Source: Seison nebaliae
Taxonomy: Eukaryota
Direction: 5' to 3'
DNA: 20,000 bases
Assembly (NCBI GenBank): GCA_023231475.1
Contig: JALJEE010001605.1
Coordinates: forward strand, 109,841-129,840
Part shown: piece after piece, positions 7,185 to 20,000 of the stretch
Layout: each line of letters starts with the position of its first letter
Numbering within the stretch: the stretch's first letter is position 1
Notes under the pieces: generated by a model
The model's input: the letters and a program-made list of their open reading frames with translations, nothing else
Database searches by the model: none
What the model was told of the DNA's origin: nothing
Made by a program: the position numbers and the translations under genes

Positions 7185-7580
7185 TTAGATATGTGATGGA
7201 TACAACATAACACGAATACGATGTCCCATGGCGTTTGGTGGAAGATTGTGAGAGAATTTTGCTCGCACGCTACCACTATTCCCGTGAACTCTTGTCACTT
7301 TTCCCCAAATAGCACGAACTTTCTTTTGTTTTCCATTTTGGGAGGATTGCGATCTGAGAAATTAGAAATAAAATTTGAATAAGAATTTAAAGAAGGAGAC
7401 GAACCCTTTGGATTTATAGACGAAGACACATCGTTTACCTAAATAAAAGTGAGCGTCTTTCTGGTCATACACACCGTCCAACTTCAACAGAGCTGTGTTT
7501 TCGTGTTGATTTCTCAATCCACGTTTATATCCAGTGAATACACCTTTGACGTAAAGTCTGGTAAATTTATCGTTGGACAT
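7185..7580 (-). CDS. RPL35A: 60S ribosomal protein L35a (eL33), 114 aa, 2 exons
   Basis: Exons 7580-7405 and 7353-7185; 51-nt intron GTTCGT..CAG. Sequence [30 protein letters not shown]...[43 protein letters not shown]. Confidence 0.98.
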
Positions 7581-7881
7581 GATATTTTTGGGAAGAAAAT
7601 AATTATTCTAAAAAATCGAAAAAATCCGTTCAAATGAGAGTTTGATGAATTTGAGAATAAGATACAAAAATCGTGAAAATTACATTATTTAAATAAATTA
7701 TTTCTATACATCACTGTTGTTGTTGGTGAACTTAAAATTTAAATATTCCGAAACTTTTTCAAATTTTCTCATAAAACTTTCTCTCATTTCAAACGAGAAT
7801 TGTCATCTCATTTCAATTTGTATTGATTATTTTAAAATTAAAAATTGTTCAGTCATTCAGTCAACATTGTTGTATAAGACG

Positions 7882-9245
7882 ATGGAAAATGTGCATATAG
7901 TTTGTGCGAAACGTAGCGCAGTAGGTTCATATTATGGATCATTATCCAAATTACCCGCAACTATTATTGGTTCTCAGGTTGTAATTGAAATGAAGGAAGA
8001 ACTGGAATTATCAAATAATGATATATCTGAATTTATTATAGGACAATGTCTTGTCGCTGGTCAAGGTTTGATGTTTTATGGAAATTTTAAATAATTTTTA
8101 GATAATAATTAATTAAATTTTTTAATTTAGGACAAAATCCTGCGAGACAAACAGCACTTCTTTCTGGATTTTCTCATTCGACTAATGCATTCACCATCAA
8201 TATGGTATGTGGTTCTGGATTAAAATCAATCGTTATGGCATTTAATGAAATTCGATTAAATGATGATGGTGGGAAGATCATCATTGCTGGTGGACAAGAG
8301 AATATGAGTTTTACTCCTCATTTAGTTTTCGCGAGAAATCCTCTCAAATTCGGAAATGGAGAACTGATCGATTCAATGAAATTTGACGGTTTAACTGATG
8401 CATTCCATAAAGTGGCGATGGGAGAAACGGCAGAACAGATTGTCGACAAATACAAAATAACGAGAGAAGCGCAAGACATTTTTGCATACAATTCTCATAT
8501 GAAATATTTTGAGAATGGTCAAAATGGATTTAAAGAAGAAATTACTCCAATAAAGTTGATTGATATGAAAAAATTAGAAAAATTTCAACAAGACAATTTA
8601 TTCTCCTCATTATCAATCGTTCCATTTCTAAAAGATGACAATACATCGAAATTGTTTAGTGAGGATGAAGGTCCAAGAAAAGATACTTCGATAGAAAAAT
8701 TGAGAAAATTGAGACCATATTTCCGTCCGAAATCTGGAACAGTCACACCTGGATCATCATCAACTATTAATGATGGTGCTGCTTTCTTATGTTTGACATC
8801 GGAAAATGAAATGAAAAAACGGAATTGGAAGTCATTAGGACGAATCGTGACGTTTGGACAAAGTGGTTGTAATCCAATCATTATGGGCATTGCTCCAGTT
8901 GAAGCGATAAAGAAATGTTTGAAGAAAGCCAATTGGAAATTGAGTGAAGTTGACATATTTGAATTGAATGAAGCATTCGCAGCACAATCATTAGCTGTCA
9001 TTAAAGAATTGGATATTGAATTAAAGAAGGAGAATGATAATTGTTCAGGCGATTGTTCCATTGCTCAAAAAGTTAATATTTGTGGTGGTGCTATTGCAAT
9101 TGGACATCCGATCGGCGCATCGGGAGCTCGCGTTCTAGTCACTTTAATTCATTTAATGAAACGAAAAAATTTAAAGAAAGGAATTGCTGCCTTATGTATT
9201 GGTGGTGGACAAGCTATAGCAGTAGCAATCGAAAATTGTCTGTGA
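7882..9245 (+). CDS. ACAT2: Acetyl-CoA acetyltransferase (thiolase II, probably cytosolic), ~432 aa, 2 exons
   Basis: Exons 7882-8065 and 8131-9245; 65-nt intron GTTTGA..TAG. Motifs GQGQNPARQ, INMVCGSGL (nucleophile Cys), NDGAA, NEAFA, GHPIGASG and LCIGGG. No N-terminal presequence. Confidence 0.93.
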
Positions 9246-9478: not shown

Positions 9479-9484
9479 TATAAA
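9479..9484 (+). promoter_or_regulatory. Candidate TATA box (TATAAA) of insulin-like gene 1
   Basis: gacTATAAAttg lies about 55 nt upstream of the ATG at 9540. The AT-rich background weakens the call. Confidence 0.3.
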
Positions 9485-9539
9485 TTGAAAGAGAAAAAGA
9501 GATTATGCAGAAAAAATTGAAAATTATTTTTTTTAAATT

Positions 9540-9931
9540 ATGAAATTCTTGATTTTATTAGTTTCCATTTTATTAGTTTGGTGCACCGTCTCCTCAACTA
9601 GTTTGGATAATCCACTACGTCAAATTGAACACCAATCGGCAAAGAAAATATATCGAGCTATGAAGTGTTTAAGGAAGTCATGTAAAGGTCAATCCGTCCA
9701 ATGTTTCATATGTGGCGAAGCGTTTTATAAAGTTTTAGATATATTTGGGAAAAGTTAAAAATTTCTTTCCTTTTTGTAGAAATGACACTTAACTATCTTA
9801 TTATAGAGAAAGTAACTTGTAAGTCAACGGGAAAGAAAGATATTGACTGGTCTTCAGTTAGAGAGCCGAAAACGGATTATTGTTGTCATCATGGATGTAC
9901 GATGAAAGATATTATCAATTTTCTTAATTGA
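9540..9931 (+). CDS. Atypical insulin-like peptide precursor 1, 112 aa, 2 exons
   Basis: Exons 9540-9753 and 9807-9931; phase-1 intron of 53 nt, GTTAAA..TAG. Signal peptide MKFLILLVSILLVWCTVSS, B-chain-like ICGEAFYKVLDIF, A-chain-like TDYCCHHGCTMKDIINFLN*. Confidence 0.82.
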
Positions 9932-10163
9932 GATTAGTTCTAAAAGAAGGGACGGTTAACCGGAAAGAAATCGTTTATTTATAACATTCAAAATTTTCTT
10001 TTTTCGTTTTTTACAATTAAAAATAAAATAATCAATAAAAACCAAATTACGGAATGAATCATAAAAAAATTAGTTTTGAATAAACAAAATAATTTTAAAA
10101 AAAAATACGAAGAATTTCTCATTAAATTATTACCATCATTCTCCAATTCTAAACGATTTCTTT

Positions 10164-10671
10164 TCATTTATGACCATGAGGAAACTTCTCATTTAAATAC
10201 ATCAGTTGCTCCAATGAACATCCACGTTGACAACAAGTTTCCGGTAGTAAAAATTCTTCCTTCCAATCAGCTAAATGATTTCGACGACATTTTTTCGCTA
10301 AAATTTTTTAAAAGAGTTTCAGTTTTAGTTTAATGGAAAGATGAAGAATAGTAACGGTATTTGACGGAATATAAATCTTCGAGAATTAAATATAAAACTT
10401 CGCCACACAAATTACAAGTGGATAGATCAAAGCAAGATCGTTTCAAACATTTTTTTTGTCGTTCGACTCTTAATCTTGTGGACACGCCATGATGGAATGA
10501 GAAACGTCTTGATCGATGTAATGTTAAATTCTCAAACGATAGTCCATTATTAATTTCCTTCAATTGTTTTTGACGTGGTTGATATTTGGTTTGTGCTTGG
10601 AAATGTGTTGTACGTAATGATACGAATGGTATCAGAATTGTTAGAACGACTATTGAGATAGAAAAGTTCAT
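10164..10671 (-). CDS. Atypical insulin-like peptide precursor 2, 149 aa, 2 exons
   Basis: Exons 10671-10356 and 10297-10164; phase-1 intron of 58 nt, GTTACT..TAG. Hydrophobic N-terminus, propeptide ending in furin-type RSRR, B-like LCGEVLYLILEDLY, A-like PETCCQRGCSLEQLMYLN. Confidence 0.85.
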
Positions 10672-11442: not shown

Positions 11443-12774
11443 TTAATCTTCTTTCAGCCATGAATGTCTTCTCAACTCGGATACTGACCACCGTTTTTCT
11501 GCTTCCTTAATTAAACAACATCGAACGAAATCCTCACAATTCGACAATTCTTTTTCTATTTTTTCGTTCGGTGATTTTCTAAAAAATGAATTTAACTTCC
11601 TTCGATAAATATTTCGTTCAACTGTATTCGATCTAATAAGAGAAGTATTTTGGAATAATTCGTATTCAGGATTTGTCGTTAGAATTTGTTGGTATAATCG
11701 ATCTTTCCAATTCCTCTCATACGTACCGATCGTGTACGGCAGTCGATCAGTTAACATCAAGTAAGTCATGATACCGACACACCAAACATCAGTAGCCGGT
11801 GTCATCATTTGTTCATTGATCACTTCCGGTGAACAATAAGCAGGCGTGCATAAACGTGAATATTGGCGATTGACTTTATAGGCAGGTCCAGCAAATCCGA
11901 AATCTATTAATTTCACTTCTATTTCATTATCGGGAGATAATGGCGATTTTACAAATAACAAATTTTCTAATTTAATATCCAAATGAACTAGACGTTTCTT
12001 ATGTAGATAATCCAAAGCGTCCAACGTCTACCAGAAGAACACGTGGAACTTTAAAATAAGAAATTATTATAAACTTGTCGTAACACTTTCTTAATATTCT
12101 CTATACCTAACAAATAATCTCCAACGGTGCCTCCATTCAAATATTCCATAATCATCATGGCACCATAAGTTGGAGAATAAAGAGATTCGACTATTTGAAT
12201 GATATTTGGATGACGAAGATGTTTAGTTATCTTTTCTTCTTGTCGTGCATCTTGATGAAATCGTTTCCCAAGAACTTTTGCTGCAAATAATTTATTTGTT
12301 CGTTTATTACTCACCTATTAATTTACCAAATTTAAATTAAATTTTTTATCTTTAATATTTAAGTTTCTCTCAAAATGTTAAATAAATTTTCTTAAAACTT
12401 TAACATATTAAAAAAGGAAATAGAAAAATTTCTTTTTTTAAATTTAATTAAAAATTTTAGTACTAAACTAAATATACAGTTCCATTGCCCCCTGTAGCGA
12501 TTTCATCCAAAATTTTATATTTGCTTAAAAATTCATCATTATCTCCTTCATTATCACCGAGAGTTGGATAAGATGGTTTCAAATAAATTTCACGTCGATC
12601 TAATTTATTGGACTTTTTTTCAGATAAAAAATTTTTCGTTTCAAATTTCAACTCTTCTGTTAGAGCGTTGTGGAGAGAAGAACGAATTTTATTGAAATTA
12701 GACAAAACATAAAAAGTTTTATTTAAAAAGGTATTATGGAAATTAAAGGGAACTAAATTACTAAATGAGGACAT
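11443..12774 (-). CDS. Ser/Thr protein kinase, CAMK group (MLCK/DAPK-like), ~376 aa, 3 exons
   Basis: Exons 12774-12469, 12314-12075, 12027-11443; introns 154 and 47 nt. Motifs IATGGNGTVY, FAAK, QEEKI..HLRHPNII, MEYLNGG, VHLDIKLENLL, VKLIDFG, TPAYCSPE and TDVWCVG. Confidence 0.9.
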
Positions 12775-17490: not shown

Positions 17491-18342
17491 TTATGGGGAA
17501 TTGTCGACAAGTAACTCGAAAGACATATTATTCTTAAGTTCATGTATCATTAATATTGAAAATTGATTGACTTCCCGGTTACGGAATGAAGTCAAAATAG
17601 AAGATGAAAAGTATTTTACATTTATTGCGGAATAAGATCCACAACTAACCCAATCTTTTTGTACAGCTATATTAGGAGTACGGATTGTCCACTTTTCAAT
17701 ATTATTTTCTATAAGTTGTTCGTTATTTTCACCTAATGCTGTTGCTGCTTCGACAAGAAACTGTCCTATAACTTTTGCACTTATATGGTATGTTATAATT
17801 TCTTTCCTAATAGAATCAAATAAAATGATGTAGCCATTCTTCAAATCAACCAAAAAACTAGCATAATGAGGTCTCATCGCCCAATCAATATGAAGTCCGA
17901 AGAAAATTATAAATCTTTTTCTAAAATAAATTCTATAGTGGTTTGGTTTTTGTCGCATTTCTTTTATTAAATCATCTTTAGTTCCCTCATAATCATAAGG
18001 AATATCATTCGGAGTATTACTTGATAAACTAAAATTAATTGAACGGAACATTAGATAATTTAGGTATAACATTTCTGTGATACTCATCGTAAAAGCTTCT
18101 GCGATTTCATACTCAAAAGTAGAAAAAGTGATGTTGGATTTAGTTTCATAGAGTTTTGCAAGGGGATCGAACAATTCTGCCGGTTCCCTCAACCCTTTTT
18201 CCGCAACCAAATTTGAATAATATTCCTTCCAATCCGGTGGTAGAATTGTTGGAAAACATAAATTAAATTCTGGATACTCTTCATCCTCTATATGAATTCG
18301 ATTCGTTAGCTGATCTTTCGATATTCGAATAATAACCTGCAT
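17491..18342 (-). CDS. Ulp1/SENP-like clan CE (C48) cysteine protease, 283 aa
   Basis: Catalytic motifs occur in C48 order: PHYASFLVDLKNGYIILFDSI (His, Asp) and AVQKDWVSCGSY (oxyanion Gln, Cys). The ORF is uninterrupted, although a 45-nt GTTACT..TAG intron (17515-17471) near the end could give an alternative C-terminus. Confidence 0.75.
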   Translation of the reverse strand: MQVIIRISKDQLTNRIHIEDEEYPEFNLCFPTILPPDWKEYYSNLVAEKGLREPAELFDPLAKLYETKSNITFSTFEYEIAEAFTMSITEMLYLNYLMFRSINFSLSSNTPNDIPYDYEGTKDDLIKEMRQKPNHYRIYFRKRFIIFFGLHIDWAMRPHYASFLVDLKNGYIILFDSIRKEIITYHISAKVIGQFLVEAATALGENNEQLIENNIEKWTIRTPNIAVQKDWVSCGSYSAINVKYFSSSILTSFRNREVNQFSILMIHELKNNMSFELLVDNSP

Positions 18343-18666
18343 TCTCCTTATTCTTCCTTATACCTATTATCTTATTGATAATTAATCTGTCATGTACAAG
18401 TTAACCTTTTATTATTAAATTAATCCTGTTTGAAATTGAAAAAAAAATTTTTTGAATAATCACTTTAATGAAATTAATAGTAACTCCACAGGGTCAATTT
18501 GTCTCGAAACTTTCTTGTAACAAACAATTATTCCTAAAATAATTGATATACTAAAAAGTCTTATTATTAGCATAATCAGTACTAAATGAACAAAGGAAAA
18601 CAAAATAAAAACGAACTTTTTTGGAAAACAGTTCACTTCAAGTGGTCTTATAACTTTGATCAAAAA

Positions 18667-20000
18667 TTATTTTATATATTATTATTTATTAGTTAAAACT
18701 CCCGTAGGGATAAACATGACAAAAGAGAAGCTGTCATCCTCTGTGTCAATAAAAATGCGTAATTGATCGACGGAATCGCGGTTGATAGGTAGAGTGGAGG
18801 TGGAATCGTATGTGGAGATGAAATTTTTAAAACCAGTTAGAGAAATGTTTGGAGATAACCCATAGTATCTGACAGTGTATGTAAAAACGGAATGGGTGTG
18901 AAAAAGATGGATAACGGAAGGACGACTAGAGAGTGATTCGGAATTGTTAAATTTATCAGAGTGAAAAAATACGACGACATAGAAGAATTGGAAGTGGTAG
19001 GATATTCACAGTGGCGAAAAGAAGTGAGCGGTTACATCTATGAAAACAGCGGATCATTCTCCTAATGAGCCGATTATAAGCACGGTCCAATGACAGCAAA
19101 GACCTATGAGAGCATAGAAAGATAGTCTCCAAAGAATACAAAGGTAGCACTAGGCTCCTAAAAAGTGAAAGACGGATCTTTAACGGGACGAATTTGGATT
19201 TAGGAGAGAAGGAGAAAAAAGCCCTACAGAATTTGTTTCGGGTAAGATCGAGAGCGGATGAGGAAAAAGACCGCATATCGATCAGTGAGTCAAGGAAGAT
19301 AGTAGAAGTAGCGACAGGAATGTTAGAGAACGAACGGTTACCGGTTGAGAGCAGCCAGCATTTCGATTCGTTTATAGTAATCCCTCTTTCAGCAAGAAGA
19401 CGAGATGTACGTAAATAGGATTTCTTCAAATCACGAAGAGAACGATGTATAATCACGAAATCGTCAGCGTATGCCATAAAATGCGGAAAGAAGAAATCAC
19501 CAATGACGATTCTATTACTTTCGTTGAGTTCGCGGAGGATGCCGTCGATAGCCAAACCAAATAACCATGGACTAAGGATCGTACCTTGACGGACTCCTGA
19601 ATTAATCTGGAAATGAGTACTGGAGCAGTCACGGTGAACAACGCACCCAGTGGAATTACAGGAGAGATGAGCGAGAAATTTGAGGATGGGATATGGAACT
19701 AGTTGACGCACAAGGTAATCAAAAGCATAAGAAACGTTAACGGAATCGAATGCCTTTGTAGCATCAAGGAAGAGAAGATGTAAGGATAGTTTCATTTCCT
19801 TGGCAATAATTATAGCCGAACGGAGAATGAGAAGGAGAGGATAGGTGCCACGACATGACGATCGATAGGCGAATTAGTAGGATGACTAAAAGAGTACATT
19901 CCGATATCGGATCAAAATGAGGTTCTCGAATACTTTCAGTAGGAACGAAGAAATGCAGATCGGTCTGTATGAATTTAACGAGGTTTGATCGATATTCGGT
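18667..20000 (-). mobile_element. Non-LTR retrotransposon (LINE), 3' part, decayed; continues beyond the window
   Basis: RT motifs SYRPI, FLDATKAFDSV, GVRQGTILSPWLF, MAYADD and GITINESKC. GC content is higher than the flanks. The element ends in AATAAA-TAA-TAA-TATATAAAATAAT immediately at the ORF2 stop. Confidence 0.9.
18682..20000 (-). pseudogene. Disrupted ORF2 reverse transcriptase
   Basis: In-frame TAG (19888-19886) and TAA (19876-19874) fall in LF*SSY*FAYR. A probable +1 frameshift in the T6 run at 18969-18964 is followed by a 92-codon open frame to TAA at 18684-18682. Confidence 0.8.

Follow-up and report, generated by a model that had tools for sequence, protein, structure and literature searches.

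Two candidate insulin-superfamily peptides of the rotifer Seison nebaliae with a shared eight-cysteine framework and no apparent B19-A20 pair

Can a peptide of the insulin superfamily be maintained by selection without the disulfide that nucleates its fold? The B19-A20 disulfide forms before the others in insulin and IGF-I, in which it constitutes the folding nucleus, and it is critical for folding and exit from the ER (as described in the cited part of PMC8514764). The question is raised by two genes, here called ILP1 and ILP2, of Seison nebaliae, a tiny marine seisonid rotifer. These are located in a 20,000-nt stretch of contig JALJEE010001605.1 (positions 109,841 to 129,840, hereafter the window), a compact, AT-rich piece of animal genome with short introns and housekeeping genes, where they are convergent two-exon neighbours, flanked by genes for thiolase and for a protein kinase (Table 1).

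Table 1. Features of the ILP1 and ILP2 locus in window coordinates.
Feature	Position	Strand	Remarks
TATAAA	9479..9484	+	61 nt 5' of the ILP1 start; weak, one of 19 such hexamers on the + strand of the window
ILP1 exon 1	9540..9753	+	hydrophobic signal-type N-terminus (~residues 1-20), pro-segment, three extra Cys, B7-type CG, B helix
ILP1 B19-equivalent codon	9747..9749	+	Gly (GGG), not Cys
ILP1 intron	9754-9806	+	53 nt, GTT..TAG, phase 1, within the B21-equivalent codon; NCBI model splices likewise
ILP1 exon 2	9807..9931	+	connecting segment with one Cys and DW, A part with CC-x3-C, stop
ILP1 A20-equivalent codon	9923..9925	+	Leu (CTT), not Cys
ILP2 exon 2	10164..10297	-	connecting segment with one Cys between KK and RR, DW, A part with CC-x3-C, short C-terminal tail, stop
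ILP2 A20-equivalent codon	10191..10193	-	Asn (AAT), not Cys; no change among the differences listed for the second lineage
ILP2 intron	10355-10298	-	58 nt, GTT..TAG, phase 1, within the B24-equivalent codon
ILP2 exon 1	10356..10671	-	signal-type N-terminus, long pro-segment, three extra Cys, B7-type CG, B helix
ILP2 B19-equivalent codon	10369..10371	-	Tyr (TAT), one base from a Cys codon; outside the readable second-lineage zone
ILP2 furin-type site RSRR	10504..10515	-	residues 53-56; both outer Arg codons synonymously changed in the second lineage
TATAAA	10809..10814	-	~140 nt 5' of the ILP2 start; weak, one of 16 such hexamers on the - strand of the window

Housekeeping genes are densely packed between positions 2310 and 16772 (encoding a NAC domain, a DNL zinc finger, a GOST 7TM protein, RPL35Ae, thiolase, a protein kinase, a TPH-domain ciliary protein and an NAD-dependent epimerase). 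Beyond them, the minus strand carries an intron-poor 288-codon ORF with an Ulp1-type C48 peptidase domain (17491-18357, E 4.7e-5), which adjoins a reverse transcriptase ORF (18956-19873, minus strand, RVT_1 E 2e-20) with GC raised to 0.42, probably belonging to a LINE-like retroelement. Rfam searches of the window gave no matches.

ILP1 is read from the plus strand (ATG at 9540, stop codon at 9929-9931, 112 aa) and ILP2 from the minus strand (ATG at 10671, stop codon at 10166-10164, 149 aa). The splicing of both genes is a prediction, common to our own enumeration of splice forms and to the NCBI models. The protein SNEBB_005074 (annotated as hypothetical) is identical, letter for letter, to spliced ILP2, while SNEBB_005073 (hypothetical, 72 aa) equals the final 72 residues of spliced ILP1, its model beginning at the internal Met41 and leaving out the signal peptide and pro-segment (window positions 9540-9659, in frame). 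An earlier reading made from the DNA letters (hereafter the sequence-only reading) described both peptides as they are found here, except that ILP2 runs six residues past the end that it quoted. Each gene contains one coding intron only, in phase 1 and just past the B helix; the GTT donors look weak, yet they are locally usual (of 9 crude intron candidates taken from other parts of the window, 7 are 47-66 nt long and start with GTT rather than GTA). Both N-termini are of signal type by hydropathy alone, with the strongest 11-residue window at residue 3 in ILP1 (3.49) and residue 7 in ILP2 (3.11). The two stop codons are separated by 232 nt (9932-10163), and AATAAA hexamers at 10022, 10034 and 10079 (plus strand) and at 9974 (minus strand) suggest overlapping 3' UTRs.

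Eight cysteines are present in each peptide. Four of them are equivalents of the canonical B7, A6, A7 and A11, and the other four, common to both peptides, are extra: three precede B7 and one is placed in the connecting segment. This framework had been described in the sequence-only reading, and the spliced proteins bear it out in full, with spacings between successive cysteines of 4, 6, 2, 17, 20, 0 and 3 residues in ILP1 and 4, 5, 2, 19, 17, 0 and 3 in ILP2. It is unlikely to be a chance pattern: the six frames of the window contain two occurrences of C-x4-C-x5/6-C-x2-CG (one per gene) and three of CC-x3-C, two of which are those of ILP1 and ILP2. The B19 equivalent (twelve residues past B7) and the A20 equivalent (nine past A11) are Gly and Leu in ILP1 and Tyr and Asn in ILP2, exactly as had been read. 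In both peptides, the B-chain spacing C-x11-C, part of the canonical insulin signature (PMC8698791), and the insulin family signature CC-3X-C-8X-C (PMC12702675) are absent.

Splicing does not return a cysteine near A20 in any of the 868 and 551 single-intron forms enumerated for the two genes, nor in any of 60 ILP2 forms with a second intron (ILP1 has no donor there). Two splice forms were scored as restoring B19 and were rejected, as the B helix was deleted in them and the cysteine was taken from the A part. A register in which the cysteine of the CGE motif is B19 was also rejected: the preceding 11 residues are not helix-like, the corresponding spacing differs between the genes (11 and 10), and the hydrophobic B9-B19 pattern lies downstream of this cysteine. 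These sequence comparisons support the view that both Seison peptides lack the two cysteines of B19-A20. In both genes the connecting-segment (fifth) cysteine is encoded by exon 2 and, therefore, arose in the connecting segment rather than being a shifted B19 of the B exon. The even number of cysteines in a secreted peptide would imply four bridges.

Origin of both peptides within the insulin superfamily, which had already been proposed in the sequence-only reading, is very likely, given the position of the phase-1 intron, the profile of the A parts and the hydrophobic residues at B6, B11, B15, A13 and A16. Insulin genes have been described as being, without exception, characterised by a phase-1 intron between B and A (PMC8286064). 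The profile of the two A parts (with query boundaries picked once the motif had been seen) gave 34 PDB matches at E<=10, all of which were insulin, relaxin or INSL chains (best E 0.0028), and its alignment is ungapped over A4-A21, with a profile Leu opposite Cys A20. Searched singly, the A parts had insulin/relaxin-family chains as 4 of 4 (ILP2) and 4 of 5 (ILP1) of their PDB matches, ILP1 being most like INSL3/relaxin A chains, and the third, chance CC-x3-C frame of the window, used as a control, gave no PDB match. Among the conserved positions listed in PMC12796670, those kept are B6 (L/I), B8 (G), B11 (L/F), B15 (L), A13 (L/M), A16 (L/I) and A19 (L/F). The B7 Cys-Gly is followed, in both peptides, by a predicted helix with hydrophobic B11, B12, B15 and B18, and CC-x3-C by the residue pattern of the A12-A21 helix.

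The ESM Atlas placed ILP2 (residues 66-149) nearest to a cluster of insulin, IGF and relaxin proteins, 46% of which carry PF00049 (score 0.88, with 191 of 256 features shared), and the fifth-nearest cluster was a mainly rotifer insulin cluster (0.85, 113 members, 53% with PF00049); at scores below 0.9 these ILP2 matches are a lead only. All 10 of the best family-bearing matches of ILP2 fall in one clan, as do those of a third of shuffled proteins. No insulin cluster was found among the 30 Atlas matches of ILP1. A hit to the Pfam Insulin family, to which the sequence-only reading had looked as a check, did not appear: Pfam (including PF00049 and Ins_beta) and NCBIfam returned no family at E<=10 for either protein. 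As the six-cysteine family signature is missing, the two peptides are classed as derived variants and not as canonical members.

Searches with other parts were less specific. The profile of the B parts matched 13 PDB chains, one of them an insulin B chain (E 0.5) and the others zinc-finger, zinc-ribbon or ATOX1-type CxxC proteins. With the whole-domain profile, fibrinogen came top and 5 of 7 matches were insulin-family chains, all at E>0.2, and the whole proteins retrieved weak unrelated or INSL3 matches only. In homologue searches, the single accepted match was in each case the query itself (1 of 5 candidates for ILP2 exon 1, 1 of 1 for ILP1 exon 1), and a three-row profile search recovered, among 53 candidates, the two Seison proteins themselves. 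Among 1.84 billion representatives ILP2 retrieved itself alone; since even its paralogue ILP1 escaped this search, distant relatives would go unnoticed in it. A metagenome scan left 1 of 51 pattern matches, which was rejected as chance: it covered 12 residues in a frame shadowing a bacterial ORF, the product of which reads like SmpB.

It is on these data that an unrelated, lineage-specific Cys-rich secreted or metal-binding peptide (CxxC and helix, CC-x3-C), resembling insulin by convergence, has to be considered. The 12 of 13 B-part matches that are not insulin, mostly CxxC metal binders, point that way, as do the absence of any Pfam match, the lack of an insulin cluster for ILP1 in the Atlas and the want of a homologue outside the species among the representatives searched. 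Cysteines of secreted proteins are, however, normally oxidised, which speaks against metal thiolates. Moreover, four independent insulin traits occur in the right order (signal-type N-terminus, CG with an amphipathic helix, phase-1 intron and the ungapped A4-A21 alignment), and the chance CC-x3-C frame drew a blank. We consider convergence improbable, and an insulin-derived origin is retained in what follows.

Both ILPs are real genes. Alignment of their mature parts scores 94, whereas shuffles that keep the cysteines in place average 32.8 and 0 of 5000 reached 94; BLASTP finds 33% identity over 72 residues (E 2e-8). Full-depth contigs of five sequencing runs match the window without differences, and may be the window's own source. 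In 4 of the 5 runs (2 samples, 2 studies) there are also low-depth, diverged contigs of ILP2. S. nebaliae has been reported as two distinct lineages (PMC8351084), and we infer that the diverged contigs derive from the second of them. The longest shows 45 differences, 27 of which are listed, those near piece ends being left out; the 27 fall in 25 codons, 23 of them changed synonymously, and 23 of the 27 are at third positions. In a neutral simulation over 189 positions, the average was 17.2 amino-acid changes and none of 20000 runs had fewer than 9, against 2 observed, both of which bring the A loop of ILP2 closer to that of ILP1. Within the readable second-lineage zone, 7 of 8 ILP2 cysteines and the non-Cys A20 are all kept; the connecting cysteine and the B19 codon lie outside it, and the intron is in the stretch where the second-lineage contig ceases to align. 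ILP2 is under strong purifying selection. No diverged second-lineage copy of ILP1 was seen among the contigs of the five runs, and the reality of this gene rests on its intact structure, paralogy and gene model.

Low-depth contigs of the same runs are about 85% alike to the window at 7524-7625, 9092-9236, 10068-10104, 10155-10548 and 12452-12538, spanning RPL35Ae, thiolase, an intergenic stretch, ILP2 and the kinase gene; the 37-nt intergenic piece (10068-10104) is kept in such contigs of three runs. An AT-rich stretch of 42 nt 5' of ILP1, beside the TATA box (9482-9523), matches another full-depth contig with 6 differences, which may reflect chance or a common promoter element.

These results also bear on the idea that the two genes are decaying, or are an assembly or strain artefact, and that B19-A20 was lost as folding was no longer needed. 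Many genes have been lost in Seison (PMC8351084), and the B19 codon of ILP2 is a single base away from one for cysteine. Yet both paralogues, only 33% identical, have lost both partners and share four new cysteines, five runs agree with the window in their full-depth contigs, and selection acts on ILP2, with A20 unchanged in the second lineage. Decay is largely refuted for ILP2, and for the pair we regard it as highly improbable.

Structure models were of low quality. AlphaFold, with the two sequences as input, gave mean pLDDT values of 45.1 and 43.6, too poor to read fold or pairing, and both weak models have helices over the B9-B19 and A12-A20 equivalents. Foldseek searches with these low-quality models found no match at E<=0.001; the C. 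elegans insulin-like structure 2kji ranked 5 of 10 for ILP1 (E 7.4), and ILP2 gave no rows. None of the 10 ILP1 matches reached Z>=2 on re-alignment with the poor model, wide fold searches with such models yielded no insulin match and no Z above 3.1, and a complex prediction for the B and A parts of ILP2 scored 0.02. At this model quality, such fold comparisons carry no information for or against an insulin fold.

Taken together, the data lead us to favour, with some reserve, a reading in which the Seison ILPs are putatively secreted, likely single-chain derivatives of the insulin superfamily, probably stabilised by the A6-A11 and A7-B7 bridges and two new ones, and most likely acting as hormones on the animal's own insulin-type receptor. 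After removal of the signal peptide, the pro-segment would be cleaved, to judge from motifs, at the furin-type RSRR in ILP2 and at KK or a single Arg in ILP1. The mature product may then be an IGF-sized single chain, in which the linker, if kept, would hold the A part in place even though B19-A20 is missing. The distance from B7 to A6 is 38 and 39 residues in the two ILPs, and 40 and 42 in two arthropod IGF sequences (counted by hand from PMC7357564 supplement 2). A single chain appears probable from the sequences, as this distance is short and as the two halves of a cut peptide would, with canonical pairing, be joined by a single interchain bridge. However, dibasic sites flank the connecting cysteine (KK/RR in ILP2, KKK/KK in ILP1), so two-chain processing is possible.

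As for the two new bridges, their proposed role in compensating for B19-A20, put forward in the sequence-only reading, is plausible. One of them would close an N-terminal loop, while the second would be a clasp that links one of the pre-B7 cysteines with that of the connecting segment and so pins the returning strand to the B helix. In insulin, the chain reverses direction once it has left the B helix and comes back to where the helix begins; in Seison, a course of this kind would place the connecting cysteine close to those before B7 and favours the clasp. Leu A20 in ILP1, Tyr B19 in ILP2 and the common Trp may fill the vacated core. We put this combination of loop, clasp and core filling forward tentatively, as slightly short of an even chance.

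Another pairing has been considered in which the peptides are insulin-derived and the bridges rewired, the connecting or pre-B7 cysteines pairing with those of the A part to give at least two B-A links, with perhaps two chains or a distorted fold. An insulin fold would put the pre-B7 cysteine of the CxxC near the A6-A11 loop, and the dibasic KK/RR and KKK/KK sites beside the connecting cysteine would suit this arrangement. An extra interchain bridge is, furthermore, found in molluscan-type insulins (PMC12343078). Against it, neither paralogue departs from the canonical form in its CC-x3-C spacing or in the CG after B7, the linker is of IGF-like length, and disulfides near dibasic sites can block cleavage (PMC8286064). 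Rewiring thus seems rather unlikely, though less so than convergence, and loop and clasp remain our preferred arrangement.

The receptor would be an insulin-type receptor tyrosine kinase and not an LGR-type GPCR; on the sequences, the kinase is mildly favoured, whereas an LGR is unlikely but retains a real share, since the A part of ILP1 is most like that of INSL3/relaxin and would suit a GPCR ligand as well. The A1-A3 stretch contains proline and not Gly-Ile-Val, and B24 is Thr or Pro. In vertebrates, receptor site 1 is contacted by Gly-Ile-Val A1-A3 and Phe B24 (PMC12796670); with these lost, the vertebrate site 1 surface is not kept and any receptor must have co-diverged.

The peptides might instead be insulin-derived but used outside the body, at the crustacean host (Nebalia), towards mates, or in adhesive or egg secretions. 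Leptostracans are the hosts of seisonids, some of which may take haemolymph as food (PMC8351084), insulin-like peptides are turned on other species by cone snails and fish viruses (PMC12343078, PMC12796670), and extra bridges and a net positive charge (+2 and +7) suit an exposed peptide. With the conserved receptor surface lost, however, the peptides are unlikely to act on an insulin receptor of the host, and strong purifying selection on ILP2, together with low copy number, would be expected of a hormone rather than of an effector aimed at a host. External use is, in our estimate, a little less probable even than convergence, and an internal hormone is preferred.

Loss of B19-A20 is not described in the cited portions of the ILP literature compared (cnidarian, nematode, molluscan, ambulacrarian, arthropod and schistosome), and neither the Seison ILPs nor this cysteine frame were found in the open full-text literature; the published rotifer ILP sequences bear directly on how new the frame is. 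The word insulin is absent from the text and two supplements of the Seison genome paper and from the text of an acanthocephalan transcriptome paper (PMC12690905), as are rotifer names from the supplement of PMC12796670. We suggest, with slightly less than even confidence, that the pair represents a selected natural insulin fold without its folding-nucleus disulfide, in which a B-domain clasp and an N-terminal loop replace B19-A20, and an undescribed class that may reach other seisonids and acanthocephalans. The material for proposing a distinct class consists of two paralogues from a single species and a partial second-lineage copy of ILP2.

Known variants add bridges or drop the A-chain intrachain bridge, and a natural, selected pair without B19-A20 differs from them. 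With its putative insulin fold, it would offer a direct test of whether the insulin fold can nucleate in another way, and a design lead for single-chain analogues. For insulin structural biologists this would be surprising, within a narrow known range (two paralogues, one species) and with a fold that is putative. Neuropeptide surveys that rely on motifs and Pfam overlook hormones of this sort in reduced, host-associated animals.

With canonical insulin, IGF and relaxin, and especially with the short-linker IGFs (arthropod aIGF/DILP6), the Seison ILPs share the signal-B-C-A order, the phase-1 intron, CG at B7-B8, hydrophobic B11, B15 and A16, CC-x3-C and a short B7-A6 distance. They differ in having no Cys at B19 and A20, four extra cysteines, no Gly-Ile-Val at A1-A3, an N-terminal pro-segment and no D/E extension. 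All 5 ILP rows in the first part of PMC7357564 supplement 2, a paper that also covers aIGFs and a seven-cysteine decapod relaxin, keep the B19- and A20-type cysteines, and six conserved cysteines are given for schistosome ILPs (PMC5391603). Rotifer ILPs, from the same phylum, have been reported (bioRxiv 10.1101/2024.07.20.604414; seven Rotaria rows in PMC11863921 supplement 1), and the Seison peptides, which have no PF00049 match, were compared with them only through the Atlas cluster.

Gonadulin/DILP8, defined by six typical cysteines, gonad expression and its role as LGR3 ligand, resembles the Seison ILPs in being too divergent for routine searches; gonadulins keep the six cysteines, one of them being seen with a long C region (PMC7357564), whereas the Seison peptides lack the full set. 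Among the described variants, some are without the A-chain intrachain bridge and some have an extra interchain one (PMC8698791, PMC12702675). The nematode alpha, beta and gamma types and Strongyloides type delta share with the Seison pair altered disulfide sets, furin-type sites and high divergence, and many are single-chain (PMC12702675, PMC3493385, PMC8698791). In nematode ILPs, however, the bridge described as dispensable, which the alpha type lacks, is the intrachain one of the A chain (A6-A11), the equivalents of which both Seison ILPs keep, and type delta has ten cysteines (PMC3493385) against eight in Seison.

The cnidarian peptide IlO1_i1 of Oulactis also has an extra pair of cysteines N-terminal of B7, with a predicted intrachain B bridge (PMC8698791), but it keeps C-x11-C and the last A-chain cysteine, whereas in Seison there are three pre-B7 cysteines and a connecting one and no B19-A20. 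Eight cysteines and four predicted bridges are likewise found in the MIP-type insulins of molluscs, in MIP-like ones of cone snails and in ambulacrarian octinsulins and multinsulins (PMC12343078, PMC8286064; the last two groups also in PMC11521371), some MIP-like conoinsulins having odd cysteine counts (PMC12343078). The multinsulin and dilp7 genes carry an extra phase-2 intron, which the Seison genes do not have, and dilp7 orthologues and multinsulins have, in addition, a conserved F domain (PMC8286064). In the MIP-type peptides, octinsulins and multinsulins, the extra pair is placed on top of the usual three bridges, whereas the eight cysteines of the Seison peptides include only four canonical ones and the core pair is the one that is missing.
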